61,410 nt of DNA from Elusimicrobiota bacterium (GTDB taxonomy: Bacteria; Elusimicrobiota; Elusimicrobia; UBA1565), in the NCBI GenBank assembly GCA_003450735.1, contig DMEZ01000013.1, positions 1 through 61,410 of the forward strand, written 5' to 3'. How positions within the stretch are numbered: position 1 is the stretch's first letter; every line of letters starts with the position of its first letter. The notes under the pieces are model-generated. The model did not search any database. It was not told the DNA's origin and saw only the letters and a list, made by a program, of their open reading frames with translations. Below are positions 12,214 through 29,105 of the stretch, in pieces. The position numbers were made by a program, and so were the translations under genes.

Positions 12214-12365
12214 TGGGGCGGCGCATCCCCGCGAACGCGGGCCGGGACTTCTCCGCCGTATCGATCCGGCCGCCTTGCAGACTATAGGATATTTCACCCT
12301 ATCCTGGACCTGGAAGGCCTCCAGGCCCGGGGTATTGTTGTAGAATCCCGCCTGAGCCGAGCTTC

Positions 12366-13958
12366 ATGATGGCCATCCAGAATCAGGCTCCACTCCTCCG
12401 GCTGGGAACGCTCATGGCGGGCTGGGCCTGCGCATCGGTCCTGGCCGGCTGCGCCGTCGCCGGCCGGAGGCCCGTCATCTGGCGGGAGCCGGCCCTCACG
12501 GTCTGGGACTTCTCTGACCCGGCCGCCCCCCTGACGCCCGCCTCGGGCCCCGCCAGCCTCGCCTATTCCGGCGCCGATGGGCCCGGCTGGGGAGCCAAGA
12601 CCAAGACGGGCCGGGCGAGCGCCCTGGGACTGCCCCCCATGGCGGACGGCGATCCGTGGGTCCTGGCCTTGCCGGCCAGGAGCGCACGGGAGGGGCTGTC
12701 CCTGACGCACCGGGGCTCTCCCAACGGGGCGTTCCTGCGCAAGGGCAGGGTCTCCAACTACACCCTCGTCATGGACGTGCTCTGGCCGGAATCGGCCGCC
12801 GGCTCCACCCGCAGCGTCCTCCAGACCGACCTGGGCGGCGCCGGCGAGGCCGAACTCCGCGTGAGCGCGGAGAACGAGCTCGGGAGCGGGGACGTCTTCG
12901 GAGGCGTCCTGGCGCCGGGACGCTGGCACCGGCTGGCCGTCTCGGTGCAGTCCGCGAAAGGCTACGGAGGGGTCGGGCAGGTCCATAAGTTCATCGACGG
13001 CCGGTTCGTGGGCGCCTACCTCACCGACAGCCCCGGGGAGGTGAGCCGGTGGACCCTGGGGGATTCCCTGCTCCTCTTCACGGACAGCGAGCCCGTCTCG
13101 ACCGAGGTCGCCCTTGGCGGCCTGATGTTCATCGACCGCAACCTCCCCATGGAAGAGCTCTCCCGCCTCGGCGGCCCCTCGGCGGCGGGCGCCGGCGCGC
13201 CTGGGCCGGCGCCCGGCCCGGAGAAGCCTCTCTCCAGGCGCGTAGGCGTCGTCGGACACCGCGGCGACAACTGCTGCGCCCCGGAGAACACCTTGGCCGC
13301 CATCCGGCAGGCCTTCGACAAGGGAGCCGAGTACGTCGAGGTCGACGTCCGCCGGACGGCCAACGGCGACCTCGTGCTCCTGCACGACGAGACCGTCGAC
13401 AGAACGACCGACGGACGGGGCCGCGTCGCGGACCTGACCCTCTGGGAGCTCAAGGCGCTCGACGCCGGCTCCTGGCACAGCCCGAAGTTCGCGGGCGAGA
13501 AGATCCCCACCCTGGCCGAGGCCCTGCTGGCCGCCAAGGGGCGCGGCAAGCTGATCCTGGACGTCAAGGCTCTCGATGTCGGGCAGGACATCCGCAGGGC
13601 GCTCTCCGAAGCCGGCGTCGGCCCGGACGCCATCCTGCCGGTCATGAACGTGGACGCCCGGGCTTTGGCGGACTTCCGCAAGCACCTCGGGGGAGCGGTG
13701 CTCCTGTGGGGGGAGGCGCCGGACCCCTCCGCCCTCGACGCCCTCAAGGCCTCGGGCGTGGGCGGCTTTGAAGTGCCGTTCTGGACCGTCAAGCCCCCGT
13801 TCCTCGAGGCCGCGCGCGCGCGCGGCATGCCGGTCATCGTCTATACGGTCATCGCCCCCGACACGATGCGCTGGCTGGCCGACGACGTGGGCGTGGACGT
13901 CATCGAGACGGATTTCCCCGGCGTCCTGAACTCCCTGCGGCCCAAGTTGCAGCCTTAG
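12366..13958 (+). CDS. Lipoprotein fusion: N-terminal concanavalin A-like (LamG-like) domain plus C-terminal glycerophosphodiester phosphodiesterase (GDPD) domain
   Basis: Lipobox VLAGC. C-terminal GDPD motifs VGHRGDNCCAPENT, EVDVRRTANGDLVLLHDETVDRTTDG. The N-terminal ~260 aa are predicted beta-sandwich; the LamG-like assignment is tentative. Confidence 0.65.
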   Translation: MMAIQNQAPLLRLGTLMAGWACASVLAGCAVAGRRPVIWREPALTVWDFSDPAAPLTPASGPASLAYSGADGPGWGAKTKTGRASALGLPPMADGDPWVLALPARSAREGLSLTHRGSPNGAFLRKGRVSNYTLVMDVLWPESAAGSTRSVLQTDLGGAGEAELRVSAENELGSGDVFGGVLAPGRWHRLAVSVQSAKGYGGVGQVHKFIDGRFVGAYLTDSPGEVSRWTLGDSLLLFTDSEPVSTEVALGGLMFIDRNLPMEELSRLGGPSAAGAGAPGPAPGPEKPLSRRVGVVGHRGDNCCAPENTLAAIRQAFDKGAEYVEVDVRRTANGDLVLLHDETVDRTTDGRGRVADLTLWELKALDAGSWHSPKFAGEKIPTLAEALLAAKGRGKLILDVKALDVGQDIRRALSEAGVGPDAILPVMNVDARALADFRKHLGGAVLLWGEAPDPSALDALKASGVGGFEVPFWTVKPPFLEAARARGMPVIVYTVIAPDTMRWLADDVGVDVIETDFPGVLNSLRPKLQP

Positions 13959-15556
13959 CCCGCCTTCGGCGTATAGCCGGGGATGCGGCTCTCGTCCACC
14001 GCGTCGATCTGGGCCGGGGGGAGGAACTGCTTGGCGTACGCCAGGTACACCTTCTCGCGGACGAAGACGTCGAAGAGGTCGGGGTCGATGTGTCCCCCGA
14101 GCTTCATCTTCCCCAGGATCTCCAGCGCTTCCGACAGGGTCTTGCCCTTCTTGTAGGGCCTATCCGCGGCGGTGAGCGCCTCGAAGATGTCCGCGATGCC
14201 GATCATGCGCGCCTGCACCGACATCTGCTCGCGCGTGAGCCCCTTCGGGTACCCCTTGCCGTCCATGCGCTCGTGGTGGCCGCCGGCGAACTCCGGCACG
14301 TTCTTCAGCTGCTTCGGCCAGGGGAGCGATTCCAGCATCTTGATGCTGACCTCGATGTGGCGGTTGATGATCCGCCGCTCCTCCTCCGTCAGGGTGCCGG
14401 CGCGGATGGTGAGATTCTTGACCTCGTCCTCGCTCAGGAAATCGGCCGTCCGGCCGTCGGCGCCGCGCCACCGGTAGGCGGCGATCCGGCGCACGCGCGC
14501 GCAGTCCTCCTCCGCCATGAACTCGCCGCCGACGTTGCAGCGCCGCAGGAAAGCGCGGTCGTCCTCGAGCTGCCGGAGGCGGGCCTCGTAGGCGGCGCGG
14601 AGGGAGGCTTCGCCGCCCCCGGCCGCCAGGGCGCGCAGCAGTTCGATCTCGGCATCCCGCTTGAGCACTTCGAAGCGCGTGTCCAGCAGGTGGATGCGGT
14701 CGAAGATGGTCTGCAGCTTGGTGGCCTTGTCGACGATGTCCACCGGAGTCGTGATCTTGCCGCAGTCGTGCAGCAGCGCCGCGATCTTGAGCTCGTGCCT
14801 CTGCGCGTCGGTCATGTCCGCGCCCGCCGCCTCGGCGAGCATCATGGTCAGGGCCGGCACGCGCGCGCAGTGGCCGCCGGTGTAGGGGGATTTGTCGTCG
14901 ATCGCGGTATTGATGAGGACGACGAGGGATTCGAAGAGCTCCTCGAGCTGCTCGATCAGCCTCCGGTTGGTCAGCACGATGGCGGCCTGCGAGGCGAGCG
15001 ACTCGAGCAGGTGCTGGTGGTCCTCGTCGAACGGGACGATCCCGCCGCTTTGCGGGTCCTGGGCGTTGATCAGCTGCAGCACCCCGATGACCTCGTCCTC
15101 GTGGTTGAGCATCGGCACCGTGAGGAAGGAGGTGGAGCGGTAGCCGTTCTTCGCGTCGAAGCTCTTCGTCCCCGAGAAGTCGTACTCCTCCGCGGCGTAG
15201 GCGTCCGGGAGGTTCACCGTCTCGCCGCTGAGCGCGGCGTGGGTGACCACCATCTTGTGGTCGGGCCGCCCCTCTTTGTCGTAGAGGGAAATCGGATCGA
15301 AGCGGATGGGCACGCCCGAGGTGCCGCCCATCGCGACCTTCAGGGAATCGGTGCGCAGGATGGCGAAGCGCAGGACCCGCTGCTCCGGGTCGTGGAGGTA
15401 GAGGGTGCCGGCGTCGGCGTTGGCGACGCGCTTGGCGGCGAGCAGGATGGTCTCGAGCAGGTGGTCGAGGTCGCCCTGCCTCGAGAGCGCGATGCCGATC
15501 TCGTTGAGCTCCTTGAGGCGGTGCGCGAGGTTCTCGTCGGAGCGCATGGGCGTCAT
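13955..15556 (-). CDS. GAF domain + HD-GYP domain c-di-GMP phosphodiesterase
   Basis: HD motif LLHDCGK. HD-GYP signature HHERMDGKGYP. N-terminal GAF-like region. ATGA overlap with the upstream gene. Confidence 0.8.
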   Translation of the reverse strand: MTPMRSDENLAHRLKELNEIGIALSRQGDLDHLLETILLAAKRVANADAGTLYLHDPEQRVLRFAILRTDSLKVAMGGTSGVPIRFDPISLYDKEGRPDHKMVVTHAALSGETVNLPDAYAAEEYDFSGTKSFDAKNGYRSTSFLTVPMLNHEDEVIGVLQLINAQDPQSGGIVPFDEDHQHLLESLASQAAIVLTNRRLIEQLEELFESLVVLINTAIDDKSPYTGGHCARVPALTMMLAEAAGADMTDAQRHELKIAALLHDCGKITTPVDIVDKATKLQTIFDRIHLLDTRFEVLKRDAEIELLRALAAGGGEASLRAAYEARLRQLEDDRAFLRRCNVGGEFMAEEDCARVRRIAAYRWRGADGRTADFLSEDEVKNLTIRAGTLTEEERRIINRHIEVSIKMLESLPWPKQLKNVPEFAGGHHERMDGKGYPKGLTREQMSVQARMIGIADIFEALTAADRPYKKGKTLSEALEILGKMKLGGHIDPDLFDVFVREKVYLAYAKQFLPPAQIDAVDESRIPGYTPKAG

Positions 15557-16344
15557 TTCGTCTTCAAGTCCTTCAGGTCCCAGCCGTAGAACCAGCTCAG
15601 GGAGAACCGCAAGGTCTTGACCGTCCGATGGAGCTGAGGATAGGTCTCCCAGCAGTATTCCGAGCCGACGTCGAAATACTTGCCCTTGAAGACCGCGGCG
15701 AGGGAGGGCCCGTGCACGTCGTAGTACTGCCGGTTCTTGGAGCGCAGGCGCCAGTCATAGGACGCGTAGGTGTGGAACATCCAGCCCCAGCCGAGCGCCG
15801 CCCAGTCCACACCCTGCCGGACCCAGCCCTGCGAGCCGGAGCCTTCCTCGCCGTGGAGATCGTAGGTCATCTTGCCCCAGGTGGAGAGCGGAAGGGCGAG
15901 CGGGGCGCGGGAGCCCAGGCGGGGCTTCCCGGTCCACTTGGAGACGTCCCAGGAGCTGAACCAGCTGCCGAAGAGGGAATAGTTGTTGTCGTCAAGGGGG
16001 AGGTCGGGATAGCGCAGCCATGCGAACTCCGCTCCGGCGGTGAGGGGCCCTTTCGCGAGCGAAGCGATCAAGGACGGCCCGTAGGTGTTGTAGTAGGTCT
16101 TGTTCTTGTTGCGCACGCGCCAGTTGTACGCGGCGTAGGTGTCCATGTCCACGTCCCCTTTGAACCGGACCCAGCGCACTCCCTGCCTGGCCCAGCCCTG
16201 CACGCCGGTGCCTTCCGTGTCGTCGGAGCCGCGCTTAAGGCTGCCCCAGGTGGAGCCGGGGTAGCCCTCGGGGGAGTAGGTCTCGGAGCCCGCCGGAGCG
16301 GACGCGAAGACGAGGAGCGTCAAAACCGCGGTTCGAAGCCTCAT
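15553..16344 (-). CDS. Secreted W/Y-rich protein with an internal tandem duplication (two ~115-aa repeats)
   Basis: Signal peptide MRLRTAVLTLLVFASAPAGS. Repeat 1 GVQGWARQGVRW...YAAYNWRVRNKNKTYYNTYGPSL matches repeat 2 GSQGWVRQGVDW...YASYDWRLRSKNRQYYDVHGPSL. ATGA overlaps at both ends place it in the bcs operon. Confidence 0.5.
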   Translation of the reverse strand: MRLRTAVLTLLVFASAPAGSETYSPEGYPGSTWGSLKRGSDDTEGTGVQGWARQGVRWVRFKGDVDMDTYAAYNWRVRNKNKTYYNTYGPSLIASLAKGPLTAGAEFAWLRYPDLPLDDNNYSLFGSWFSSWDVSKWTGKPRLGSRAPLALPLSTWGKMTYDLHGEEGSGSQGWVRQGVDWAALGWGWMFHTYASYDWRLRSKNRQYYDVHGPSLAAVFKGKYFDVGSEYCWETYPQLHRTVKTLRFSLSWFYGWDLKDLKTK

Positions 16345-18134
16345 CGGGCCACCTTCCTGAAGTCCTGGGGGGACGGTATCGTGCCGGAAGGCGTCAGCGC
16401 ATATTCGGGCAGCGGCTTCCACTCGTCGCTCTTCAGCCTGTAGACATAGCCTTCGCCGAGCCGCATCACGGCGGCGTTCTCGTCCTCGGCCAGGAACTCC
16501 GTGCCGGGAACCTCCGCGGCGAGAGCCTCCGGCCTGCGGGCGTCCTTGGAGAAGGGGTCATGGCGCAGGAACTCCGCGAGGAGCCAGGCCAGGGCGAGAA
16601 AGCTCGCGGGCTTGGTGATGACCTGCGGTTTCGCGGCATCCGCGTGGAAGGGCTTCCCGACCAATCTCACGGCGACGGGCACGGTCGCGATGGGGGGGAG
16701 CGGGATGTCCCGGACGTCCTTGGCCTGCATCTTCGTGCCGGTCAAGGCCGCGCCGTGCTCCGGCACGAACACCACGACCGCGCTGCGGCCCGATCTCTCG
16801 ACCGTCGAGAGGAAGGATTCCAGCTGTGCGATCATAGCCTCGAGCCTTCCCCTGTAGGAGGCGGCGTCGTCCGGGCCTCCGGAGACTCCCGACTTGTGCG
16901 TTCCCATGTGGAGATTGGCGGTATTGTAGTACAACGCCGCCCTCGGCGCCGACGACTCCTGGCGGGCTTTCCAGAATCGGCTCAGCGCCGCTTCGTCCTG
17001 GCTCATGGGGGAGTCGTCGAACATCCGATAGGCCGTCGGCAGGCCGTCGATGCCGATAGGCGGATCTCCCCGGCCGTACTTCTGCACGTTGACCGCGAAA
17101 TCGGCGTACTTGCCGTCGTTGTTGGTCATCGTGTAGGTCTTGAACCCGACGCTCCTCAGCCGGCCCAGGAGATAACAGCTGGCGGGGGCTTCGTCATAGA
17201 GCGCCTTGTGCCGCATCTGTCCGCAAGGGGCCTTCAGCAGGCGCAGCGACGCCGGGCCACTGTAGGAGCAGGCCGCGCTGAAATCGGTGAAGACGTAGTC
17301 GAACCTCGAGAAGAACGGCAGCAGGTCGGCCCCGGCATCCCTGATGTCCTTCCACGAGAGCGAGCAGATGTGCAGGAGGATCACGTCGAAAGGCCGCGCG
17401 CCATTCTCGGGAGGCGGGATCGCCACCACCCTGCGGCGTTCCTTCCGGTAGAAAGCCGCCGGCGACGCGCTGGGCCCCTCCGGCTCGGCCTCCTCCTCCG
17501 CCGGCTCCGGCTGCGGGGCGGGCGCCTCGGACCGGGCGAGGGCGGCTACCCTGTCGTAGAACGGGTCCTCGGGCAGCGGCTTCCTCGGCTCCAGGACCGG
17601 CCTCCTCGAGAGTTCCGCGGGAGCGTCCTCGCCCTCCAGGGCCAGGACGCCGTGCTTCGCCTGCAGACCCCACGCCGCGCCGAAGAGGACGTAGGCGCAG
17701 AGGGCGAGCGTCAGGGGCTTCCTGCGTGAGACGAGGAAGCATGCCGCGCAGAGCGCGAGCCCGGCCGCGAGCATCGGCAGGTTCAGGAACTGCCAGAGGA
17801 ACTCCGATAGGTAGCGCGCCGACGGGCGCTGCTTCGGGTCCGCCAGAAAATCAATGATCGTCATGGGAGGAGGGAGGAAGGATTCCCGCCACAGGAGCGC
17901 CAGCGCCGCGACGGCCGCCGACGCCCCGATGAGAGCGGTGAGGAGGCGGCTCTTCTTCGGGGGGGCGTGGAGCGCTAGATGCACGGCAAGCGCGAGCGCC
18001 CCCGTCAGGGCCGCATCGAGGGTGAGATAGCCGGCCAACGAGAGGACCGCCGCCGCGGCCAGGTACGCGTACCAGGCGGCCGCCAGCTCCTCGGAGAACC
18101 CACGGGGATCGAACGCCAGGCCGGCGATTCTCAC
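16341..18134 (-). CDS. bcsG: Cellulose biosynthesis protein BcsG-like phosphoethanolamine transferase (N-terminal TM domain + alkaline-phosphatase-like domain)
   Basis: N-terminal multi-TM region. Catalytic-domain motif ILLHICSLSWKDI (Cys/Ser ligands). PEHGAAL (Glu-His). The gene sits immediately downstream of bcsB. Confidence 0.55.
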   Translation of the reverse strand: MRIAGLAFDPRGFSEELAAAWYAYLAAAAVLSLAGYLTLDAALTGALALAVHLALHAPPKKSRLLTALIGASAAVAALALLWRESFLPPPMTIIDFLADPKQRPSARYLSEFLWQFLNLPMLAAGLALCAACFLVSRRKPLTLALCAYVLFGAAWGLQAKHGVLALEGEDAPAELSRRPVLEPRKPLPEDPFYDRVAALARSEAPAPQPEPAEEEAEPEGPSASPAAFYRKERRRVVAIPPPENGARPFDVILLHICSLSWKDIRDAGADLLPFFSRFDYVFTDFSAACSYSGPASLRLLKAPCGQMRHKALYDEAPASCYLLGRLRSVGFKTYTMTNNDGKYADFAVNVQKYGRGDPPIGIDGLPTAYRMFDDSPMSQDEAALSRFWKARQESSAPRAALYYNTANLHMGTHKSGVSGGPDDAASYRGRLEAMIAQLESFLSTVERSGRSAVVVFVPEHGAALTGTKMQAKDVRDIPLPPIATVPVAVRLVGKPFHADAAKPQVITKPASFLALAWLLAEFLRHDPFSKDARRPEALAAEVPGTEFLAEDENAAVMRLGEGYVYRLKSDEWKPLPEYALTPSGTIPSPQDFRKVAR

Positions 18135-18140: not shown

Positions 18141-20306
18141 CTACTTGCCCGTGATCCGCTTCTTCCTGTACTTGTTCAGGAAGTAGAACAGCGCCAGGCT
18201 GAGGGCGACGACGACGAGGGCCAGCAGGGCGTAATACAGCCACGGATGCGCGTACAGGTACGCATCCATCTTCGAGATCGGGCCGGCCTTCCCAGCGAAA
18301 TACTTCCTCCCGATGCTCACGGCGATCATGTTCTTCTCGGGGTCGTTGAGGTCGAGCAGGACGAGGTCGCCTTTCAGGTTCGCCTGCACGCTGTACTTCA
18401 TGAGGGCGAGGGAGAGGGCCCGGACTTCCTTGGGAGTGCGGGCGGTCAGCAGGACGACGCTGTGCCCTTCGCCGTAGGGTGATTGGAACTCCATCACCGC
18501 GCCGGTGTTCGTGCTCAGCCCGCTGACCTGCCGGCTGAACGCGAACTGCGATTCGTCCGCCCAGCCCTGCACGACGGGGTAGGGGAACGACATCTCCTTG
18601 GTCAGCGCGAGGGGCGCCTTCTCGCGAATCCCGGCGGGCAGGCTGTCGATGTCGCCGATGATCATGAGCTCGCCGTCGTATCTCTTGGGCGGCTGGGTGA
18701 TGAACTGGATCTCCAGGAGCGGGTGGCCGTTCTTCTGGGTGATCGAGCCCAGGAGGTTCAGCGCGGCCTCGATGCCCTCCCGGCCCGTGTTCGCCAGGTA
18801 GACCCTGGCGCCGTGCCCGTCGGGCCAGCGGGTGATGGGGAACCCGTTGAGCATGAAGAGCTCCAGGCGCGGCATGTCCACGTAGTGCGGCATGGGCGGG
18901 AAGCGGATCGTGGAGACGTCCATGACGGTCAGGAACAGGTTCTGGGTCTGGAAATACTCGCAGTTCTTGCCGATGGAAGGCGTCAGGACGGGCTCCAGCC
19001 GCAGGACATTGCTCCCCGGCTTGAAGAGGTAGGTGGGGATGTCCAGCATGTAGCCTTCGACGAGGCCGCCCTTCTCGTCGTTGAGGTGGATCCCGCGCAG
19101 GAGCTGGCCGTTCAGAGACAGGTTCACGACCGAGTCGGAGCGCCCGGCGGCGCCGTAGGAGTAGCTCAGCGACAGCTTGGCATAGAGGTTCTGCTTGATG
19201 AGGAAATCCGGGGGCAGGCGGAAGCTCAGCTCCGCCATGCTGGAGTTGATGCCCTTGAAGGTGCGGGTGGGGAAGTTCAGGGACTTGAAGGTGTAGGTCT
19301 TGTCCGCCTTGATGACCTCCTTGCCGCCGTAGAGCGGGATGTCCGGCATCTTGATCCCCGTCACGGTCATCTCGTCCATCTCCGGGAACGGCGCGGACAT
19401 GATGGCGAAGGTCTCGGCGGCGAGCTTCAGGTGGTCCTTGTTCAGGCCCGATACGACGAGCAGGGCATGGTAGGGGTCGCTGAGGCCCTCCCGCACCTGC
19501 CGGACGGGCAACGGCATGATCTTCAGGAACGGCCCCTTGACCCCCGCTTTGGCGTCGTACCCCGCCGCCTCCAGGACCCTGCCCGCGAAATCCGCGTCCC
19601 CGATGAGGATGTTGTCGTAGCCGGGCACGATCTCCCGCGACACGGCGAAGACGACTTCCCGATAATCGAACCTCATGGCGACGCCGGAGGCGATGATCCC
19701 GGCGATGGAGATGGTTTCCGCGGAGCTGTCGGGCATGACGATGACGACCTCGCCGCGGGGGGTCAGCTTGGGGTCGAAGAGGAAATTCGTGACCGCGGAC
19801 AGCCTCAGGGGGACCCGTTCGAGGGCATACTCGATCTCGAGGACCGCGTCGTCGTCGCCCAGCTTGAGCGTGGTCCAAAGCTCGGGCTGGCACGGGAATT
19901 CGCAGCCCATGGTGTAATGCTGGTGAGCGATGAAACTCAGGTCGTTGTAGCCCGGCTTGAACAGCTTCGCTGGCAGGTCCACCTTCATCGCCCCTTCGGG
20001 GGCCAGCGGGTTCAGGTTCCTCTGCGCGACCGCCTCCCCGTTGAACCTCACGATCAGGCGCGAGTTGGCGGCCAGGAGGGCGGTGGAGTTGACGAAGCCG
20101 AAGGAAAGCGACGCCTTCTTGACCTTCCAGCGCTCCGGGACAGGCAGGGACACCCCGTATTCGGCGGCCGTGCATTTGAGGTCGTAGCGCGTGGCCGAAC
20201 TGACCTTGTAGAGCGGGATCCGGATGGTCTCGGAGTGCGCCGCCTCGAGGCCTGCCGACGAGAGCAGGGCGCACGCCAGCATCGCGGAGGCGAAGGGGCG
20301 TCTCAT
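18141..20306 (-). CDS. bcsB: Cellulose synthase subunit BcsB-like (periplasmic, C-terminal TM anchor)
   Basis: Signal peptide MRRPFASAMLACALLSSAGLEA. Large periplasmic protein with a single C-terminal TM helix (YYALLALVVVALSLALFYFL), the topology expected of BcsB. Located in the bcsA operon. Confidence 0.6.
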   Translation of the reverse strand: MRRPFASAMLACALLSSAGLEAAHSETIRIPLYKVSSATRYDLKCTAAEYGVSLPVPERWKVKKASLSFGFVNSTALLAANSRLIVRFNGEAVAQRNLNPLAPEGAMKVDLPAKLFKPGYNDLSFIAHQHYTMGCEFPCQPELWTTLKLGDDDAVLEIEYALERVPLRLSAVTNFLFDPKLTPRGEVVIVMPDSSAETISIAGIIASGVAMRFDYREVVFAVSREIVPGYDNILIGDADFAGRVLEAAGYDAKAGVKGPFLKIMPLPVRQVREGLSDPYHALLVVSGLNKDHLKLAAETFAIMSAPFPEMDEMTVTGIKMPDIPLYGGKEVIKADKTYTFKSLNFPTRTFKGINSSMAELSFRLPPDFLIKQNLYAKLSLSYSYGAAGRSDSVVNLSLNGQLLRGIHLNDEKGGLVEGYMLDIPTYLFKPGSNVLRLEPVLTPSIGKNCEYFQTQNLFLTVMDVSTIRFPPMPHYVDMPRLELFMLNGFPITRWPDGHGARVYLANTGREGIEAALNLLGSITQKNGHPLLEIQFITQPPKRYDGELMIIGDIDSLPAGIREKAPLALTKEMSFPYPVVQGWADESQFAFSRQVSGLSTNTGAVMEFQSPYGEGHSVVLLTARTPKEVRALSLALMKYSVQANLKGDLVLLDLNDPEKNMIAVSIGRKYFAGKAGPISKMDAYLYAHPWLYYALLALVVVALSLALFYFLNKYRKKRITGK

Positions 20307-20322: not shown

Positions 20323-21282
20323 TCAAAAGTAATTGTAATAGCCCATCCATAGATTCTCGAAGAACCCGCACTGCAGGTCGTTGAGGAGGCCCGCCCGGAC
20401 CTGTTCCGCGATCTCGTGCTCCGCATGGCATGCCCCCGCGCCGGCGTGGCCGCCTCCGCCGTACCTCTTCATGATGCTACCGATGTCCAGGGGGCAGGTC
20501 CTGTCGAGGACGGATTTTCCCGCCGCGAAGAACGCCCGGCCGCTCTTCCCGGTCGAGGAGACGTGCATGGACACGTTGCACTCGGGGAACAGGGCGTAAG
20601 TCATGAACTTGTTTCCCGGGACGATCCGCTCCTCCTGCCTCATGTCGGTGAGGACGAGGTTGGAGTGCACCGACGCGCATCTCAGGATCTGGCCCTTGTA
20701 CTCGTCGATGCACGCGAAATAGAGCTCCAGCCTCTCCTCCACGTCCGGGATGCTCAGGAGCTCCCATACGGTGCGGCGCTTCGCCTCGTCCATCAGCTCG
20801 ACGATGAGCTCGTCGTGGGACGCACGGAACCTCTTGAACTGCTCCAGGCCCGTCCTCGTGTCGATCAGGTAGCTCAGGAGGGTCCAGCCCGTCGGATACA
20901 GGATCTCCTCGCTCGCGATCCGGGCGCTGAAGCCCTTGTCGACCGCGTCGAGGATGTCGTCGTGGATGCCCGCGAACCGCTCCGCTCCGTAATGGTTGAA
21001 GATCACCCTCGCCGTGGAGGGCGCCCGGGTGTCGACCTTCAGATTGTGCTTGTCGACCGCCGGCTTGTGCGCGGAGGGATAGTGGTCGAAGGCCAGGTGG
21101 GCGTCGTCCTGGTACGGGAGCCCCGCCGTGATGTCGCCGGCCGTGACCTTGAACTTCCCGCTCTCGACGTCCTTCGGGTGGACGAAGGCGACGCTCTCGA
21201 GGAGGCCCAGCTCCTTGAGGAGCATGCCGCAGACCAGCCCGTCGAAATCGCTCTTGGTGACGAGCCGGTATCTTCCGCCCAA
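20323..21282 (-). CDS. DHH/DHHA1-family phosphoesterase-like protein (NrnA-like), with the DHH motif degenerate to DHY
   Basis: Motif I DFDG. FDHY sits in the place of DHH. DHHA1 signature GGGGHAGAGA. Inserted between bcsA and bcsB. Confidence 0.45.
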   Translation of the reverse strand: MGGRYRLVTKSDFDGLVCGMLLKELGLLESVAFVHPKDVESGKFKVTAGDITAGLPYQDDAHLAFDHYPSAHKPAVDKHNLKVDTRAPSTARVIFNHYGAERFAGIHDDILDAVDKGFSARIASEEILYPTGWTLLSYLIDTRTGLEQFKRFRASHDELIVELMDEAKRRTVWELLSIPDVEERLELYFACIDEYKGQILRCASVHSNLVLTDMRQEERIVPGNKFMTYALFPECNVSMHVSSTGKSGRAFFAAGKSVLDRTCPLDIGSIMKRYGGGGHAGAGACHAEHEIAEQVRAGLLNDLQCGFFENLWMGYYNYF

Positions 21283-21283: not shown

Positions 21284-23557
21284 CTAGGCCTCCGCCCTCG
21301 CCCAGAGGCGGTCGACGTAGCCCGCGAGGCGGTTCGAGTGGAGCTTGACGTGGTCCATCGAGGGGACGAGGATGAACTTGAGCACCGCGACGTAGAACAC
21401 CCGCAAGCCCATGGCGCTCGACTTGAGGAGGAAGAGCAGGATCCACACGGGGTTGGCCGGCTTGGTCTTCTGCTCCCAGAAATCCGCCCACCGCTGGCTG
21501 TCGCCGAAGACGAACTCGACGGCCTCCATGCGCTGCTTCTCGTCGCTCAGGATGAACTCGCAGCCGCAGGCCCAGGTTGTCCCCCTGCGGACCTGCCGCT
21601 GGACACGCGCCTCGATCCTGAATCTCTTGCCGTGGCTGTTCCGGGTCTCGAGGATGAGGTGCTCGAGGGGCGCCAGCTCGTCGGCCAGCTCGAAGGAGAG
21701 CCCGACGCCCGACATGGAGATGTCGTCCATCTGCGCTTCCAGCGCCTTGCCCAGCCTGGGCAGGGTGAGATGCGCCGTGCCTTTCGCCCACATCCGGTGG
21801 TGCCGGCGCACCTGCTTGCGCTCGAAGAACGCCCCGAACGACGAGAGCGCCAGCAGGAGGTTCACCAAGCACCACACGAAGGTGATCGTCGTGATGTCCC
21901 GGTAGATCGGGTACGTGTACCACTTGATCGCCGCGGCCGGGACGGCGACGATGAGCACCCCGGTCAGCAGGAGGAAGGGCAGGGCGAACCCGCTCAGGAA
22001 GTCGCTCTCCAGGCTCTTCCCCTTCGGCGTCACCTTGAAGGACGGCTTCCTCGGGTTCAGGAAGACGGACAGGACCACGGGGATCAGGAACAAAGACTGG
22101 ATGCCCTCGAAGAACTCCGAGAAGAAGGGCCAGCGGAACCGCCCGTAGAGGAACCCCGTCAAAACCATGGACCCCAGCACGTGCGGGAGCGCGTAGGCCA
22201 AAACCTGGGGCACGGAGGCGAAGAAGACCCTCAAATCCAGGAGCAGGAACGCCGCCGGCGCGACGTAGAAGATGACCCTCGACGCCCCGAAGAACCAGTA
22301 GAAGCAGCTGTTGAAGTAGCAGAGCTTCTGGTAGAGCTTCAGGCCTTTCGCGAACAGCGGGTTGTTCAGGACGAAGATCTGGGTCATCCCCTGGGCCCAG
22401 CGGCTCTTCTGCACGATCAGGTCGTCGAACGTCTCCGGGGAAAGGCCGCAGACCATGGGCCGCGGGATGTAGACGCTCTTATAGCCCCGCTGGTGCAGGG
22501 CCACGGCGGTCTCGCAGTCCTCGGTGATGGTCTCGCCGCAGACGCCCCCGATCTCCTCGAGGCAGCTCCGCCTCAGCAGCGCCGCCGAGCCGCAGAAATA
22601 GCTCGAGTTCCACATGTCGAGGCCCGGGTGGATGCCGCGGTAGAACATGTCGTTCTCGCTGGGCGCGTCCTTGAAGATCGCCATGTTCTTCTCGATCGGG
22701 TTCGGGTTGATGAAGAAGTGCGGCGTCTGCACGAACGCGACCTTCTCGTCTTTCAGGAACCAGCCCGCGGTGTTCTTCAGGATGTCCCTCACGGGGACGT
22801 GGTCGCAGTCCAGGATGAGCACCAGGTCGGCGCTCGTGTGCCCCAGCGCGTGGCTGAGGTTCCCGGCCTTGGCCCTGAGATTCTTCTCGCGCGTGATGTA
22901 GCCGATGCCGTGCCTCTCGGCCAGCCCCTTCAGGGCGTAGTACCTCTCCCAGGCCTGGGGCCCGGTCTTCGGGTCGCACCGCTTCGCGACGGTGGCCCCG
23001 TCGTCGAGGATGTGGATCTTCAGCTTGTTTTTTGGGTAATCGATGTTCAGGGCGGCCAGGGCCGTGAGCTTCACGATGCCGATCGGCTCGCTGTAGGTCG
23101 GGATGAGCACGTCCACGGAAGGGTAGCTGGACGTGTCCGCGGGCAGCGGCATGATCTTGTTCTCGAGCGGCCAGATGCTCGTGAAGATGCCGAGCAGGTG
23201 GACGCTGATGGCGTACATCTCGGCGAGGTAGAGGGCCATCATGGCCAGGGTGTCCGCCGGCCCCGTATAGACCAGGGTCTCGGTCGTCCTCCAGACCACG
23301 TAGCGGAGGGTCAGGAAGGAGGCCAGGACGATGAAGAGGATCCTCAGGGGGGGCTTCTTGACCCTGTCGATGGGCTTGAGGAGGAAAAGGACGGCGAGGG
23401 AGCCCCAGCCGACGACGTACTGGCTGCTGAGCTCCAGGTGCAGCTGCGCGAGATGGTAGAAGAGATAGAGCGCGGCGGCGAGGAACGCGTACGAGAAGCC
23501 CGGGATGACGCCGGGATGCTTCAGCAGGAAGTCCTTCAACGAGCCGGCGGACGTCAA
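21284..23557 (-). CDS. bcsA: Cellulose synthase catalytic subunit BcsA (GT2) with C-terminal PilZ domain
   Basis: GT2 motifs D,D,D (ILDDG, LDCDH), TED, QKSRWAQG (QxxRW). PilZ motifs RRHHR and DISMSGVGL. TTG start at 23557 overlaps the cyclase stop (TTGA). The N-terminal 70 aa of the longer ORF look non-coding. Confidence 0.9.
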   Translation of the reverse strand: MTSAGSLKDFLLKHPGVIPGFSYAFLAAALYLFYHLAQLHLELSSQYVVGWGSLAVLFLLKPIDRVKKPPLRILFIVLASFLTLRYVVWRTTETLVYTGPADTLAMMALYLAEMYAISVHLLGIFTSIWPLENKIMPLPADTSSYPSVDVLIPTYSEPIGIVKLTALAALNIDYPKNKLKIHILDDGATVAKRCDPKTGPQAWERYYALKGLAERHGIGYITREKNLRAKAGNLSHALGHTSADLVLILDCDHVPVRDILKNTAGWFLKDEKVAFVQTPHFFINPNPIEKNMAIFKDAPSENDMFYRGIHPGLDMWNSSYFCGSAALLRRSCLEEIGGVCGETITEDCETAVALHQRGYKSVYIPRPMVCGLSPETFDDLIVQKSRWAQGMTQIFVLNNPLFAKGLKLYQKLCYFNSCFYWFFGASRVIFYVAPAAFLLLDLRVFFASVPQVLAYALPHVLGSMVLTGFLYGRFRWPFFSEFFEGIQSLFLIPVVLSVFLNPRKPSFKVTPKGKSLESDFLSGFALPFLLLTGVLIVAVPAAAIKWYTYPIYRDITTITFVWCLVNLLLALSSFGAFFERKQVRRHHRMWAKGTAHLTLPRLGKALEAQMDDISMSGVGLSFELADELAPLEHLILETRNSHGKRFRIEARVQRQVRRGTTWACGCEFILSDEKQRMEAVEFVFGDSQRWADFWEQKTKPANPVWILLFLLKSSAMGLRVFYVAVLKFILVPSMDHVKLHSNRLAGYVDRLWARAEA

Positions 23558-24369
23558 TTCGTATCGCCCGTGATCGTTACGCTGTGCTCGGTCGTCCGCC
23601 TTTCCTCGTCGGAGCCTGAGCGGCCCAGCTTCCAGTAGGCCGCGGCCGCGAGGAGGATCGCGCCGGCCAGGGCCAGGAGGACCTTGATGCACAGCGGGCA
23701 CTTCTCTTGGACATCCTGGACCGGCTTCCTGGCGGAGAGGTCGCGCTGGATCTCGGTCTTGTTCCAATAGCCCTTGTAGAGCTTCATGGGCTCTTTCTTG
23801 CCCTTCAGCTCGACTTCCTTGGCGAAGCCGCAGTAGATCTCGGCGCGGTCCGAGAGCGCGTTGTAGGCCTCCTCCGAGAGGAGGATCTCGCCGGGGTTCG
23901 CCTGCGCCTCGATCCTGGACGAGACGTTCACGACGTCGCCGAAGATGTCGTTCTTCTCCACGATGCCGAGGCCCACGTGGATGCCGATGCGCATGAGGAT
24001 CGGGATCGTGAGCTTCTTCTCCAGGTTGAACGCGTCGATGCCCTTCTGGATCTCCGCGGCGGCCCGCAGGGCGCTCTGGGCGTTCTCGTAGTAGGACATC
24101 GTGCCGTCGCCCATCGTCTTGACGAGGATCCCGTCGTGCTTCTTGATGACCGGGAAAACGATGTCGAAGTGCTGTTTTATCAGCGTCCGGTGGGCGATGT
24201 CCCCGTGCGTCTCGGCGATGGCCGTGGAGCCCTTGAGATCGGTGAACATGACCGTGATGGTCTTCTGGAACCGGTCCTTGAACAGCTTGTCGAGGCGGGC
24301 GCGCTCCTCGATGATCTTGTCTACGTTCAAATCGTCTTCAGGATCTTCTTTCCGCTGTTCATCTGCCAT
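23554..24369 (-). CDS. Class III adenylate/guanylate cyclase (CHD) with a C-terminal transmembrane anchor
   Basis: Metal-binding Asps in FTDLKGST and KTMGDG. GIHVGLGIV and NVSSRIE motifs. The Lys before TMGDG suggests ATP specificity. C-terminal TM helix VLLALAGAILLAAAAYW. Confidence 0.75.
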   Translation of the reverse strand: MADEQRKEDPEDDLNVDKIIEERARLDKLFKDRFQKTITVMFTDLKGSTAIAETHGDIAHRTLIKQHFDIVFPVIKKHDGILVKTMGDGTMSYYENAQSALRAAAEIQKGIDAFNLEKKLTIPILMRIGIHVGLGIVEKNDIFGDVVNVSSRIEAQANPGEILLSEEAYNALSDRAEIYCGFAKEVELKGKKEPMKLYKGYWNKTEIQRDLSARKPVQDVQEKCPLCIKVLLALAGAILLAAAAYWKLGRSGSDEERRTTEHSVTITGDTN

Positions 24370-24453: not shown

Positions 24454-26235
24454 CTATCTTCTCAGGGTGAGAGTGAGGGAAGCGCCTTCTCTGGCGAGCG
24501 AGGCCGGACTTGCGGCCGAGAAGGGCCCGGAGGAGGCCGTGATCTCGTAGTCGCCCAGGAACGCGCGCGCTCGATACTCCCCGCGCCAGTCCGCGGTCCC
24601 GCCGGTCTGCGTGTTCCAATCCTTCAGGAGGAGCTCCTCGAGCGCGGCGGCCGCCGGCTTCTTCGACCAGTCCCTCCGGTAGAGCGCCATGACCGGTTCG
24701 GAATGGACGCCCTCCCAGAAGCCCCAGAGGGTGATGCCCTCCACCGCGGGGTGGCTGAACATCGCGGTCATGAAATCGCGCAGGTAATCGGCCTGGAGCT
24801 CCTCGTCGGCCACCTCGACGTCGAGCTCAGTGGCCTGCAGGGGCTTGCCGAGCCGTCCGAACCGGTCGAGGACCCTCAGCAGCCGCTCGGGCGGCGTAAG
24901 GTCGTAGCGGAAATGACACTGCAGGCCGACGCCGTCGAGCGGGGCCCCATCCGAAAGGATCCGGCGGATGAGCGCTTCGTAGCGGTCCTGCTGCTCGAGG
25001 TTCAGGCCGAAGCCGTCCAGGACGTCGTAGTCGTTCACGAAGAGCCTGGCTTCGGGGTCGGCCTTCCGCGCGAGGCGGAACCATTCGAGAGCCTCCCCGC
25101 GGCCCAGGAGGCCGAGGACCTCCGGGTGGCCGATGGGCTCGTTGAGCACGTCCCACTCCGCGGCCTTCCCTCGGTAATAGGCCGCTTCCTCCGTGATGTG
25201 CCCGCGGATGGTTTTCCGCAGTCGGTCCGGGTCGTTCTTCAGGTTCTCCATGCCCTCGGGCATGTGCTCCCAGCCGGGCCAGACCAGGGTATGGCCCCGG
25301 AGCTTGATGCCCCCGGCCTTCAGCCAGGCGGCCGTCTTGTCGGCCCAGGCTCTCTGCTCGCCTTTCCAGAAGGGCCACTTGAGTCCGTTCTCTATGGTGG
25401 CGGAGTTGAAGAGCCGCAGGAAGGTCTCCTTGTAGCGGCGCCGGTCGTCGTCCCGGCCCCCGGAGAAGAGGGTCGCCGAGTTGATCGCGCTGCCGAAGAA
25501 GAACGCATGCCGCTTCAGTCTGACCTGGACGGCCGCGCCCGGCGCCGGCTTCCCGTCCGGGTCCACGACCTTGACCGTGATGCCGGCTTTCCGGATGCGC
25601 TCGATGCGCTCTTCGGCGGCTTTCCTCCACGGGGCCCCGGGCTCCCGGCCTTCATAGAACCCGGCGGCGGGGACCCGGACAGGGCTCCGGCCGAGGCCGA
25701 CGAGCTCGAAGCCGGCGAGCTCCACCGTCTGCGCGCCGAATCCGAGCCTGAAAGCGATCTGCGCTCCCCCGGCCGGATAATCCCCGGCCGACCTGAAAGG
25801 TACGTCGATGCGCCGCCAGCGCAGGCCGGCCTCCGCCGGGAGAACGATGGATTTCCGGTACTCGCCGCCGACCTGCTCGAAGACGAAGTCCACCCGGGCC
25901 TTCGCGGGCGAGAACAGCGGCCTCCGGACGTAGAACCTGGCCGCCAGAAGGTCCCCGGCGCGCACCGGCGCGGCCGTCGGCGCTCTCAACTGCACCTCGT
26001 AAGGCTGAGGCGGCCTGGCCAGGGTGCGCAGGCGCAGCGCCTGCCCGCGGATCGAGACAGCGCCGCGGCCGCCGGCAAGAAAGGAGGCAGGGTCGCTCAG
26101 ATCGGAGGGCCTCACCAGCGGGGTCCCCGGCGGGAGCGGCGGCGCGGCGGGAAGCCTCAAGACGTAGAAGCCGTATGCCGAGTATGCCGCGGCGGCGGCC
26201 AGGGCGGCGCAGGAGGCGGCCAGGAGGCGCTTCAC
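24454..26235 (-). CDS. Glycoside hydrolase family 10 (endo-beta-1,4-xylanase-like) with an N-terminal beta-sandwich (CBM4/9-like) region, secreted
   Basis: GH10 catalytic motifs WDVLNEP (acid/base) and QATELDV (nucleophile). In-frame GTG starts at 26265 or 26235 (MKRLLAASCAALAAAAA signal peptide). Confidence 0.7.
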   Translation of the reverse strand: MKRLLAASCAALAAAAAYSAYGFYVLRLPAAPPLPPGTPLVRPSDLSDPASFLAGGRGAVSIRGQALRLRTLARPPQPYEVQLRAPTAAPVRAGDLLAARFYVRRPLFSPAKARVDFVFEQVGGEYRKSIVLPAEAGLRWRRIDVPFRSAGDYPAGGAQIAFRLGFGAQTVELAGFELVGLGRSPVRVPAAGFYEGREPGAPWRKAAEERIERIRKAGITVKVVDPDGKPAPGAAVQVRLKRHAFFFGSAINSATLFSGGRDDDRRRYKETFLRLFNSATIENGLKWPFWKGEQRAWADKTAAWLKAGGIKLRGHTLVWPGWEHMPEGMENLKNDPDRLRKTIRGHITEEAAYYRGKAAEWDVLNEPIGHPEVLGLLGRGEALEWFRLARKADPEARLFVNDYDVLDGFGLNLEQQDRYEALIRRILSDGAPLDGVGLQCHFRYDLTPPERLLRVLDRFGRLGKPLQATELDVEVADEELQADYLRDFMTAMFSHPAVEGITLWGFWEGVHSEPVMALYRRDWSKKPAAAALEELLLKDWNTQTGGTADWRGEYRARAFLGDYEITASSGPFSAASPASLAREGASLTLTLRR

Positions 26236-26304
26236 GTTCGCTCCAGATGGATGATACGCATCCACCGGATGCGATGCAAGCCGGGAAGCGGCCCCGCGGG
26301 GAGC

Positions 26305-26706
26305 CTAGGCCGGCTTGAGCAGACGGGCTACGGTCTGTTCGAGCAGGGCCGGCTCGATGGGCTTGTCGATGAAGGCCTCGGGCTCCTTGCAGCCGTAGTA
26401 CTCCCCCAGGTCCTCGGCCGAGAACTTCAGCCCGCTGCGCCGGTTCACGGATGTCAGCATGATGACCGGGATCGAGGCCAGGTCCTTGTCGGTCCGCAGC
26501 GCCGCGAACACCCCGAACCCGTCCATCTTGGGCATCTGGACGTCCAGGATGACCAACCGAGGCCTGCTCTGGCGGATCAGCTGGAGCGCCTTCTCTCCGT
26601 CGGGAGCGTCGAGCAGTTCGCAGGGGAAGCCTTCCAGGACGCCCCGCACGAAAGAGATGCAGTCCGGCTCGTCGTCGGCGATCAGGATCTTGGGCTGTTC
26701 GTTCAA
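26305..26706 (-). CDS. Single-domain response regulator (CheY-like receiver)
   Basis: KILIADDEPD, ILDVQMPKMDG, LTSVNR...KPIEP. TTG start with a GAGGAGG SD 7 nt upstream. Paralog of 11797..12213. Confidence 0.8.
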   Translation of the reverse strand: MNEQPKILIADDEPDCISFVRGVLEGFPCELLDAPDGEKALQLIRQSRPRLVILDVQMPKMDGFGVFAALRTDKDLASIPVIMLTSVNRRSGLKFSAEDLGEYYGCKEPEAFIDKPIEPALLEQTVARLLKPA

Positions 26707-27205: not shown

Positions 27206-28735
27206 CTACCCGCCCTGCCGGCCTGCGTCCATCGCGGCCTGTCTGCTCCTGGGGAGCCGGAGGCTGAAGGTGGTGCCCCGGCCGAGGGCGGTGTCGACCT
27301 CGATGCGTCCCCCGTGCTCTTGAACGATCTTGCGGGTCACGGAAAGGCCGAGCCCCGTGCCCTTGGAGCCCTTGGTGCTGAAGAAGGCCTTGAAGAGGGA
27401 CCCGCGCGCGGCCTCGTCCATGCCGCAGCCCTGGTCGGCCACGTCCACCGCCACCTCGCCGCAGTCGAGCTCGCGCACGCGCACGTCCACGCCGGCCCCT
27501 TCGCGCCCCTCGCAGGCGTCCAAGGCGTTGGTGACCAGGTTCAGGACGCACCGGCAGATCCCCTGGCCGTCGAGTTCGACCGGGTTCGGCCCGGGGGTCG
27601 GCTCGAAGCGCAGGGGCACGCCCCGCTCGTGCGCCTTGGGAGCCATCAGGTCCACGACGCCCTTCACGACCTCGTTGAGGTCGCACGCCTGGTATTCGGG
27701 CCGGCGCTCCTTCGCGTAGGTCAGCATGTCCTGGACGAGGTTCTTCAGGAGCTCGAGGTTCCTGTCGATCATCCCGATGCTGCGGCCCGGGATGTCCGAC
27801 CCGGCCTTCTTGACCGCGGACTTGAGCAGGTACATCCCGCCGCTCAGCCCGTTGAGCATGTTCTTGATGCAGTGCGCCACCCCGGCTACCGCCTCGCCGA
27901 TGGCGGCCAGGCGCGCGGCCTTGAGGGATTCGCGGATGAGCTGCGCGTTGTGGATGGCGACCGCGATCTGGCCGGCTACGGCCTCCGCGAGGGCGAGGTC
28001 GTGGCGGCTGAAGCCCTCGCCCCCGTTCTTGTTGACCAGCTCGAGGGCGCCGATGCACTGGGAATCGACGATCAGCGGCACGCAGAGGATCGAATGGGTG
28101 AGGAAGCCGCTCTCTTCGTCCGCCTTCTTGGAGAAGCGCGGGTCCTGGAGGGGGTTGTTGACGATGACCGCCAGCCGCTTGGACACGCAGTCGCCCACGA
28201 TGCCCTCGCCTTCCGCGAGGCGGAAGCTCGCCAGCTTGGAGGCGCCGCCCTCCGTCACCACGAACTGGAACACGAGCTCGCGCGCCCCCTTGTCCCAGAG
28301 CGCGATGGTCGCCCCTCCGACGTCCAGCATCTCGCCGGCGATCCGGATGACCGTGGGCAGGAGCTTATCGAGGTCCTGGGACGCGCTGTGGATCAGGCGC
28401 GAAGTGTCGACGAGGCCCCGGAGCTCGGCCAGCAGGAAGCGGTGGGCGTGGTCGTTGCGCCTGCGGCCGATCGCCTGTCCCGTCCTGGATGAGAGCTTAG
28501 CGACGATCAGCCCGCCGCAGCCGCAGGCGACCTCGGTGTCGGCCCGGAACGCCGCCAGGTCGTATTCCCGACCGCAGGTCGGGCAGGACATCCGCTTCCT
28601 TTCGCTGACGATCCGGCGGTAGGCGAGCCACGGGAGGATCCGGATCCTTTCGCCGCAGGAGCACGCGATCTCGGTCTCGTTGAGAGACCGGTCCGCCTCG
28701 TAACGATGACGGCACTTAGGGCATTCGGCCAGCAT
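27206..28735 (-). CDS. Sensor histidine kinase: duplicated N-terminal zinc-ribbon, GAF, HisKA, HATPase_c (cytoplasmic, no TM seen)
   Basis: Two CPxC(x16-18)CxCG repeats (CPKCRH...CSCG and CPTCGR...CGCG). GAF-like region. H-box GVAHCIKNML. HATPase LNLVTNALDA, DQGCGM, GTGLGLSV. Confidence 0.75.
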   Translation of the reverse strand: MLAECPKCRHRYEADRSLNETEIACSCGERIRILPWLAYRRIVSERKRMSCPTCGREYDLAAFRADTEVACGCGGLIVAKLSSRTGQAIGRRRNDHAHRFLLAELRGLVDTSRLIHSASQDLDKLLPTVIRIAGEMLDVGGATIALWDKGARELVFQFVVTEGGASKLASFRLAEGEGIVGDCVSKRLAVIVNNPLQDPRFSKKADEESGFLTHSILCVPLIVDSQCIGALELVNKNGGEGFSRHDLALAEAVAGQIAVAIHNAQLIRESLKAARLAAIGEAVAGVAHCIKNMLNGLSGGMYLLKSAVKKAGSDIPGRSIGMIDRNLELLKNLVQDMLTYAKERRPEYQACDLNEVVKGVVDLMAPKAHERGVPLRFEPTPGPNPVELDGQGICRCVLNLVTNALDACEGREGAGVDVRVRELDCGEVAVDVADQGCGMDEAARGSLFKAFFSTKGSKGTGLGLSVTRKIVQEHGGRIEVDTALGRGTTFSLRLPRSRQAAMDAGRQGG

Positions 28736-29105
28736 GCGTCCCCCTGCTGCGCAGGCGTGCGGCGGGATTAGGGCCTCGGCGCACGGTAACACGCCCCGAG
28801 GACTGAAGACAAATGAATTTTTTTCATCGTCGTATTAGCGCATCTAATATCCGGAGCCTCCGGCCCGGCCGAGACTGGACGTCCATGCCGCATTATACCA
28901 CCCAGGCCCCGGCGGCGGCCAGGACGGCGACGCCCAGCGCCGCGTCCGCGCCGCGACGCCGCCGAAGAGGACCTGCAGCGTCACCTCGAAGGACGTCCAG
29001 CCGAGCCAGAGCGCTCCCGCCACCGGCAGGGCGTTCCTGGCCAGCACCAGCCACGGCCCCAGGTTTCCATGAAGGACTCGGAACGGTTTCTTGGGAGATG
29101 CTCCA

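Follow-up and report, generated by a model that had tools for sequence, protein, structure and literature searches.

A degenerate PggH paralogue is probably a conserved component of bacterial cellulose synthase operons

Cellulose synthase is the enzyme on which the idea of control by cyclic di-GMP (c-di-GMP) was founded, and what is catalogued of its accessory subunits (BcsE, F, G, Q, R and others) comes mainly from Proteobacteria. The locus examined here raises the question of why a gene for a phosphoesterase-like protein should stand between bcsA and bcsB, two genes that are normally adjacent. It lies in a window of 61,410 nt from an Elusimicrobiota bacterium (GCA_003450735.1, contig DMEZ01000013.1, positions 1–61,410 of the forward strand), the window being the whole stretch of DNA that was analysed. 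An initial annotation, made from the letters without database searches, had pointed to three motifs (GGGGHAGAGA, DxD and FDHY) as marks of a DHH/DHHA1-type protein inserted between the two synthase genes; all three are present in the 319-aa open reading frame (ORF) at this position, and Pfam places GT2 and PilZ domains on one side of it and BcsB on the other. The ORF product, referred to here as the window protein, belongs to a clade of degenerate paralogues of PggH (the variant clade, as distinct from canonical relatives that keep the site pattern of PggH itself), and this paralogue is probably a conserved Bcs-operon component that is undescribed in the literature we searched. The gene and its ribosome-binding signal are as follows.

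20323–21282, minus strand: PggH-like ORF of 319 aa plus a TGA stop; variant clade, degenerate metal site.
21289–21293, minus strand: GGAGG Shine-Dalgarno sequence, read from the sequence, 6 nt 5′ of the TTG start and inside the 3′ end of bcsA.

The TTG start codon (21280–21282) is separated from the bcsA stop codon TAG (21284–21286) by a single nucleotide, and 16 nt lie between the stop of the PggH-like ORF and the ATG of bcsB (20304–20306). From this spacing and the start signals, the PggH-like gene in the window is predicted to be translationally coupled to bcsA. There is no signature of horizontal insertion in base composition, with a GC content of 0.63–0.66 over the gene and its neighbours. 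The window protein has neither a signal peptide nor a transmembrane (TM) segment and its first β-strand opens the sequence, suggesting that it is cytoplasmic.

To identify the family, we searched the sequences of solved structures with phmmer, and the match was Vibrio cholerae PggH (7d62_A, E = 1.2e-84, query residues 4–303 against chain residues 19–320). An AlphaFold2 (AF2) model made with 43 clade sequences as input (predicted local distance difference test score, pLDDT, 88.7; predicted template modelling score, pTM, 0.84) gave the same chain as its top Foldseek match (E = 2.6e-37, TM-scores 0.82/0.89, root-mean-square deviation 2.6 Å), followed by DhhP, a pAp phosphatase, TM1595, GdpP, NrnA, RecJ and Cdc45. 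Since 7d62 is the best match both by sequence and by model, we assign the window protein to the PggH family of DHH/DHHA1-fold proteins, and its descent from that family is essentially certain. PggH is a phosphodiesterase that degrades pGpG, the linear dinucleotide to which c-di-GMP is broken down, and is, to our knowledge, the only known pGpG-specific enzyme. The initial annotation had named PggH among several comparators, and it turns out to be the closest characterised relative in sequence and in fold. That annotation had also held that the assignment should fall if the protein did not score against DHH/DHHA1 models. Technically this is the case, as neither Pfam DHH (PF01368) nor DHHA1 (PF02272) gives the window protein a score even at E ≤ 10, but this is a misleading outcome: the window protein is unambiguously homologous to one whose DHH/DHHA1 architecture is defined by crystallography. 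The Pfam models miss the window protein and its clade, and catch canonical PggH relatives only occasionally: a precomputed DHHA1 (PF02272) match is found in only 4 of the 120 best database relatives, and the canonical relative P0100 has sub-threshold DHH/DHHA1 scores (E of about 4e-3 to 6e-3), while the variant P0010 has none. An NCBIfam scan of the window protein returned nothing informative.

Whether the window protein can still act as PggH does depends on the metal site. In PggH, Mn2+ is held by D15, N55, H68, H69 and D121, with D13 and D67 in the second shell, and this ligand set is strictly conserved in Vibrio PggH (PMC8861645). Activity is abolished when H68, D121, D13 or D67 is mutated, and the D121 mutation removes catalysis while leaving pGpG binding largely unaffected (PMC8861645). 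Binding is the work of other residues: H282 of the GGGH motif is required for pGpG binding and recognition of the 5′-guanine, and R146 and R228 are required for dinucleotide binding (PMC8861645). R11 has a role in the binding of pApG. Alignment to PggH gave the following correspondences in the window protein, with clade counts where they concern the binding residues.

21241–21249, minus strand: motif I DxD, D12-F-D14 (D13 and D15 of PggH), kept.
21121–21123, minus strand: G54, replacing the Mn2+ ligand N55 of PggH.
21079–21087, minus strand: motif III, F-D66-H67-Y68 (D67-H68-H69 of PggH), reading DHY, with Tyr for the second His (TAT codon at 21079–21081).
20929–20931, minus strand: F118, replacing the Mn2+ ligand D121 of PggH (motif IV).
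20854–20856, minus strand: R143, equivalent to R146 of PggH (dinucleotide binding), kept; Arg in 99 of 101 clade members.
20608–20610, minus strand: K225, a conservative change from R228 of PggH (dinucleotide binding); Arg in 78 clade members and Lys in 21.
20446–20460, minus strand: DHHA1 motif GGGGH (G275-GGG-H279, followed by AGAGA), with H279 equivalent to H282 of PggH; His in 98 of 101 clade members.

Three of the five Mn2+ ligands of PggH are substituted (N55 by G54, H69 by Y68 and D121 by F118), D14 and H67 are present, and K10 stands at the position of R11. The degenerate DHH motif described in the initial annotation was therefore correctly seen as regards Tyr in place of the second His, but it is only one of three ligand losses, G54 and F118 having been overlooked. 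Judged from these substitutions, PggH-type catalysis has probably been lost in the window protein. Since the defining catalytic feature of the family is absent, the name pGpG phosphodiesterase is not a suitable annotation for it.

We then asked how far these changes extend beyond one genome. The best 120 database relatives fall into two sharply distinct site patterns, a canonical one (R-DD-N-DHH-D-R-R-GGGH) and a variant one (K-DD-G-D[H/Y/N]Y-[hydrophobic]-R-[R/K]-GGGH). In a neighbour-joining tree built from an alignment that excluded the diagnostic sites, with the clade found by climbing from the window protein, all variant sequences form a single clade (n = 101) that contains no canonical sequence. 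Monophyly failed under a looser definition of "variant" that took in unrelated degenerate lineages from a search of 50% representatives. The clade includes sequences from Elusimicrobiota, Nitrospirota, Geobacteraceae, anammox Planctomycetota and Nitrospinota, at least five phyla, and collapses to essentially one representative on clustering at 50%. In PggH numbering, position 55 is Gly in 99 of the 101 members, position 68 is His in 63, Tyr in 19 and Asn in 16, position 69 is Tyr in 82 and Phe in 8 with Ala, Leu, Val or Ser also found, and position 121 is Phe in 42, Tyr in 22, Val in 14, Ile in 8 and other residues in the remainder. On the other hand, at each of D13, D15, D67, R146 and H282 no fewer than 93 clade members have the PggH residue, out of the 96–101 aligned per column. 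Ligand sites that have become relaxed or hydrophobic, together with binding residues that have been held, are the signature of a protein that has lost catalysis and kept binding. The same counts bear on a caution in the initial annotation, that the Tyr might be a sequencing artefact: a record of the identical protein (P0001) comes from three contigs and Tyr occupies the site in 82 of 101 clade members, so Tyr68 is not an artefact. The clade also carries an extension that canonical PggH does not have.

20326–20373, minus strand: aromatic C-terminal tail QCGFFENLWMGYYNYF; clade consensus NLxxGYFNYY, not in canonical PggH.

Within this tail G314 and Y315 are invariant in alignment A1, and the AF2 model draws a short helix at 307–313 with low pLDDT.

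The wider family holds several further degenerate lineages that are independent of the variant clade. In one protein of 726 aa (P0151), an MCP signalling domain (201–360) is fused to a degenerate PggH-like domain (404–691) with the site pattern R-E-D-N-S-H-R-N, in which R146, R228 and GGGH are kept; this hints at an independent precedent in which a dead PggH-like domain may have been reused as a sensor. Four others (P0123, P0124, P0126 and P0129) have a canonical PggH domain with all ligands intact, C-terminal to an ODP-family metallo-β-lactamase-fold domain, suggesting that these fusions may be regulated pGpG hydrolases. The top-scoring 50% representative, P0121 (631 aa), has two PggH-like/DHHA1 units in tandem, at least one of them degenerate (R-D-N-G-N-Y-Y-T).

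The question of what the variant protein is for is best approached through its neighbours. In a scan of species-representative genomes we took the best 80 of 438 relatives, typed them by site pattern and searched their flanks with the Bcs proteins of the window; adding the six loci of our first three look-ups gave 86 typed loci. A bcsA or bcsB gene lies within 10 kb at 22 of the 23 variant loci as opposed to none of the 63 canonical loci, a zero that is a lower-power, though consistent, result because flanks are short at many loci. With four further look-up loci the figure becomes 26 of 27 variant locus records within 10 kb of bcsA or bcsB, and since some of the 23 entries are duplicate contigs, the count for unique loci plus the four added ones is 21 of 22. 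The sole exception, L018 from a Nitrospinia genome, has a cyclase homologue adjacent to the variant gene and no bcsA within 10 kb. L018 and L019 come from one Nitrospinia metagenome-assembled genome with two variant paralogues, and the L019 copy lies directly 5′ of bcsA-bcsB.

Seven variant loci were looked up individually, covering Elusimicrobia, Nitrospirae, Trichlorobacter ammonificans and four metagenomic lineages. All seven have the gene order Guanylate_cyc (about 270 aa), bcsA (with PilZ), the PggH-like gene, bcsB, GH8 and a TPR/BcsC gene, with bcsG next in five; no bcsG was seen in L001 or L090. The usual full order is thus class III cyclase, bcsA, PggH-like gene, bcsB, bcsZ, bcsC and bcsG. 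Linkage to bcsA survives rearrangement, as L012 and L022 have bcsA, the PggH-like gene and bcsG in that order with bcsB elsewhere or not seen, L019 has the PggH-like gene followed by bcsA and bcsB, and in the Kuenenia locus L020 the PggH-like gene is divergent from bcsA-bcsB, which lie 1.7 kb off, and is preceded by a DUF6271 gene. In Planctomycetota more generally (L017, 8791–10020; L020, 6116–7261) the variant gene is preceded by DUF6271 and does not follow bcsA, and in L017 bcsA is 8 kb away from it. The initial annotation had called the insertion between bcsA and bcsB unusual, and this is borne out, though it is a conserved architecture and not a one-off. A Bcs-associated function for the variant protein is, on this linkage, very likely. 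Of the 25 linked BcsA records, the window's among them, every one has an intact PilZ motif RxxxR, and all but L090, which reads NISLSG, have an intact DxSxxG, so that these synthases are still gated by c-di-GMP. We considered that the PggH-like protein might substitute for lost c-di-GMP binding by PilZ and rejected this, as the BcsA PilZ motifs are intact; for the same reason the PggH-like protein adds to c-di-GMP control and does not replace it.

Taken with the site pattern, this leads us to favour, with confidence only slightly better than even, a PggH paralogue without catalytic activity that would bind a nucleotide (probably pGpG) and act within the c-di-GMP-activated synthase as an accessory or regulatory subunit. 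In such a protein the Mn2+ site would have been dismantled and the dinucleotide pocket kept, with loss of pGpG hydrolysis; pGpG or a related guanine nucleotide would be bound through R143, K225 and H279; the aromatic tail could dock the protein on the membrane or on the cytosolic GT/PilZ face of BcsA; and synthase activity or assembly would be coupled to the state of c-di-GMP turnover. The specific part of this proposal, that the protein is a receptor for pGpG or a guanine nucleotide, falls somewhat short of an even chance. The stronger version, in which it is a dedicated pGpG receptor within the synthase complex and forms with the cyclase a type of bcs operon having two extra nucleotide-signalling subunits, is doubtful. 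Several points weigh against what we propose. D12, D14 and D66 are kept clade-wide and H67 is present in the window protein, and some metal binding, or other chemistry using Tyr as ligand or nucleophile, may persist. The identity of the ligand is extrapolated from PggH, and the change of R11 to Lys, like that of R228 to Lys in the subclade of the window protein, could alter specificity. Physical contact with BcsA or BcsB, finally, is deduced only from linkage and translational coupling.

Comparison with characterised proteins helps to place the variant protein. It resembles PggH (VCA0593 of Vibrio cholerae, 7D62; PMC8861645) along its full length, with 45% identity in the structural alignment, a common fold in which a rigid linker helix joins two domains, and the shared DxD, D67, H68, R146, GGGH His and a basic residue at 228. 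It differs in having G, Y and F for N55, H69 and D121 and K for R11, in its extra aromatic tail, in its bcs-operon location (0 of 63 canonical loci are near bcs genes) and in an activity that, going by these residues, is probably lost. A parallel for such reuse exists in exopolysaccharide machines, where BcsE and PelD have dead GGDEF domains that serve as c-di-GMP receptors (PMC8892547). The analogy we propose with BcsE (GIL; a degenerate REC-GGDEF protein of the Escherichia coli type II Bcs system) and PelD is that of a catalytically dead descendant of an enzyme of c-di-GMP metabolism which is encoded in the operon of an exopolysaccharide synthase, binds the nucleotide and tunes that synthase (PMC8892547), and both BcsE and the variant protein co-occur with bcsG. 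However, the fold is GGDEF in one case and DHH/DHHA1 in the other, BcsE binds c-di-GMP and BcsQ/BcsF, and no bcsE, bcsF, bcsQ or bcsR was seen at the variant loci of the seven look-ups. Cdc45 and archaeal RecJ-Cdc45 (GAN) belong to the DHH superfamily and are among the fold matches, and Cdc45 is a non-catalytic scaffold, but identity is only about 10%, the role is in DNA replication and the domain architecture is different. The nanoRNases and cyclic-dinucleotide phosphodiesterases NrnA, GdpP, TM1595 and Rv2837c share the fold (Foldseek probability 1.0) and the GGGH motif, but at 12–16% identity and with a flexible linker, butterfly dimers, two-metal sites and an intact DHH. The "DHHW" of the clostridial ccs locus is unrelated.

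The remaining genes of the cluster in the window are relevant to the alternatives weighed below.

21284–23557, minus strand: bcsA, GT2 plus PilZ by Pfam (RRHHR and DISMSG intact); 757 aa, the length of the L001 orthologue.
18141–20306, minus strand: bcsB, start MRRPFASAMLACALL (signal-peptide-like); Pfam BcsB, E = 5e-110; homologues align from residue 1.
16341–18134, minus strand: bcsG, phosphoethanolamine-transferase family; Pfam CBP_BcsG, E = 4e-120.
15553–16422, minus strand: 289-aa protein without a Pfam match, homologous to the C-terminal part of TPR BcsC-like proteins.
13955–15556, minus strand: GAF plus HD-GYP phosphodiesterase with HD and HHERMDGKGYP intact; last gene of the string.
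23554–24369, minus strand: class III nucleotidyl cyclase of 271 aa with a C-terminal TM helix; Pfam Guanylate_cyc; Ma1120 in the PDB, E = 2e-24.
24454–26265, minus strand: GH10 glycoside hydrolase (Pfam), 5′ of the cyclase; conserved in L009, L010, L012, L016 and L022.

The probable TTG start of bcsA overlaps the cyclase stop codon (TTGA). In the window the cyclase keeps its catalytic residues D44, K84, D88, D141, N148 and R152, which are also conserved at most loci, and the K/D pair suggests an adenylate cyclase making cAMP. Trichlorobacter and Geobacter (L005, L021) have a degenerate cyclase, and none is found beside the Planctomycetota variants. In L090 a cNMP_binding-domain gene (16154–16723) lies just 3′ of the string cyclase, bcsA, PggH-like gene, bcsB, bcsZ and bcsC, and may matter for the cyclase. 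The TPR BcsC-like proteins to which the 289-aa protein is homologous are the long ones of the Nitrospirae and Geobacter loci, and tblastn matches lie within the TPR proteins of L003 and L005. It may be a BcsC outer-membrane domain that has split off, and other Elusimicrobia have it as a stand-alone gene beside bcsB and GH10. In the Elusimicrobia cluster GH10 occupies the place that GH8 (bcsZ) holds in other phyla. The cluster is flanked by several glycoside hydrolases, a GH3, the GH10 and a GH15 fused to a peptidase C26/GATase domain, their ORFs being at 9090–11300 (plus strand), 24454–26265 (minus) and 29106–31112 (minus). A response-regulator receiver gene (26305–26706, minus) and a GAF-histidine kinase gene (27206–28792, minus) lie 5′ of the GH10, cyclase and bcs string, and a further receiver protein is encoded 3′ of it (11797–12297, minus); it is possible that these provide transcriptional or signalling control of the cluster. 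At 12366–13958 a plus-strand ORF with a GDPD (glycerophosphodiester phosphodiesterase) domain runs convergently towards the last gene of the bcs string, and the minus-strand ORF at 12294–13685, which overlaps it, is probably spurious.

The initial annotation had first suggested an active NrnA-like enzyme turning pGpG into GMP, paired with the HD-GYP enzyme of the operon. A phosphodiesterase with a remodelled site (D12, D14, D66 and H67 with Tyr68 as a ligand), clearing pGpG or another small phosphodiester at the synthase and so completing the c-di-GMP turnover begun by the operon's HD-GYP or by EAL enzymes, would account for the retention of DxD, D66 and GGGH in at least 93 aligned clade members (96–101 per column), for the presence of Tyr at position 69 in most members (82 of 101) and for the intact HD-GYP gene in the window's gene string, and its parent family is a pGpG hydrolase (PMC8861645). 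It has more difficulty with the change of N55 to Gly in 99 of 101 members, the variable hydrophobic residues in place of D121, the change of H68 to Tyr or Asn in 35 of 101, and the presence at position 69 of Phe, Ala, Leu, Val and Ser, none of which ligates metal; in PggH itself, H68 or D121 mutants are inactive (PMC8861645). As for the HD-GYP pairing, the gene is intact in the window's string, but our flank search found no match to it at any other variant locus, and we reject HD-GYP as a conserved partner. With three ligands lost and positions 68 and 121 varying across the clade, we consider an active enzyme unlikely. The alternative offered by the initial annotation, a regulatory pseudo-enzyme binding pGpG or another nucleotide, fits better, given the retention of R146, of Arg or Lys at position 228 and of the GGGH His, from which nucleotide binding is predicted, and given that in PggH the D121 mutation stops catalysis and spares pGpG binding (PMC8861645). 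The label exopolyphosphatase, which is the NCBI product name, is highly implausible as a function. Besides the database name, all that favours it is the remote fold match, within the DHH superfamily, to yeast PPX1 (2qb6) at rank 50, and that match is marginal (TM-score 0.23, E = 1.4e-4); among characterised proteins the nearest relative acts specifically on pGpG and is no polyphosphatase (PMC8861645), the metal site is degenerate and the name has no support from an NCBIfam model. For the window protein the label is misleading and should not be used.

Two other possibilities accept the loss of catalysis and differ over the ligand. The protein could have a purely structural or assembly role and no nucleotide ligand, its dimer and aromatic tail serving to stabilise or organise BcsA-BcsB complexes at the membrane much as Cdc45 acts as an inactive RecJ/DHH scaffold. 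Inactive members of the DHH superfamily set a precedent, Cdc45 and RecJ-Cdc45 are among the fold matches, the C-terminal tail is specific to the clade and coupling to bcsA is tight. We nonetheless regard this as improbable, because there is next to no variation in the GGGH His, in R146 or in R228 (R or K) although catalysis appears lost, which would be difficult to account for if no ligand were bound. Alternatively, the protein could be the receptor or partner of the co-conserved, membrane-anchored class III cyclase, with the product or the cyclase itself acting through it on BcsA as a second nucleotide input. About 20 of the 23 variant loci, and six of the seven look-ups, have the cyclase gene directly 5′ of bcsA, the seventh look-up (Trichlorobacter) having a diverged cyclase-like protein there without a Pfam match; catalytic residues are conserved in most of the cyclases, and the L018 variant stands beside a cyclase without bcsA, while L090 has its cNMP_binding gene downstream. 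Against this, the pocket of PggH reads linear 5′-pGpG whereas the K/D pair of the cyclase suggests cAMP, and the PggH-like gene persists where the cyclase is degenerate (Trichlorobacter, Geobacter) or not adjacent (Planctomycetota). These observations leave a role as cyclase receptor quite unlikely, and a nucleotide-binding, non-catalytic PggH paralogue acting as an accessory subunit of the synthase continues to be the reading we prefer.

In the literature that we searched, no description links DHH, DHHA1, PggH, exopolyphosphatase or a class III cyclase to bcs genes, and the cyclase subunit of bcs operons likewise appears to be undescribed there. The 2015 review of bcs operons by Romling and Galperin reportedly includes no DHH-type subunit. 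A major Bcs review mentions neither DHH nor pGpG (PMC8892547). The conserved four-gene core of cyclase, bcsA, PggH-like gene and bcsB differs from the catalogued accessory sets, and it spans the phyla listed above. The misleading database name exopolyphosphatase is also corrected. A review of nano-RNases poses dinucleotide-binding proteins and the signalling roles of dinucleotides such as pGpG as a question for the future (PMC9779919), and the variant clade offers a concrete candidate for a pGpG-binding protein. An orthologue is available from a named species, Trichlorobacter ammonificans, with a 3.06-Mb genome record. If the stronger version of our proposal, with a dedicated pGpG receptor, is true, the output of these synthases would track the flux of c-di-GMP turnover in addition to c-di-GMP itself through PilZ.

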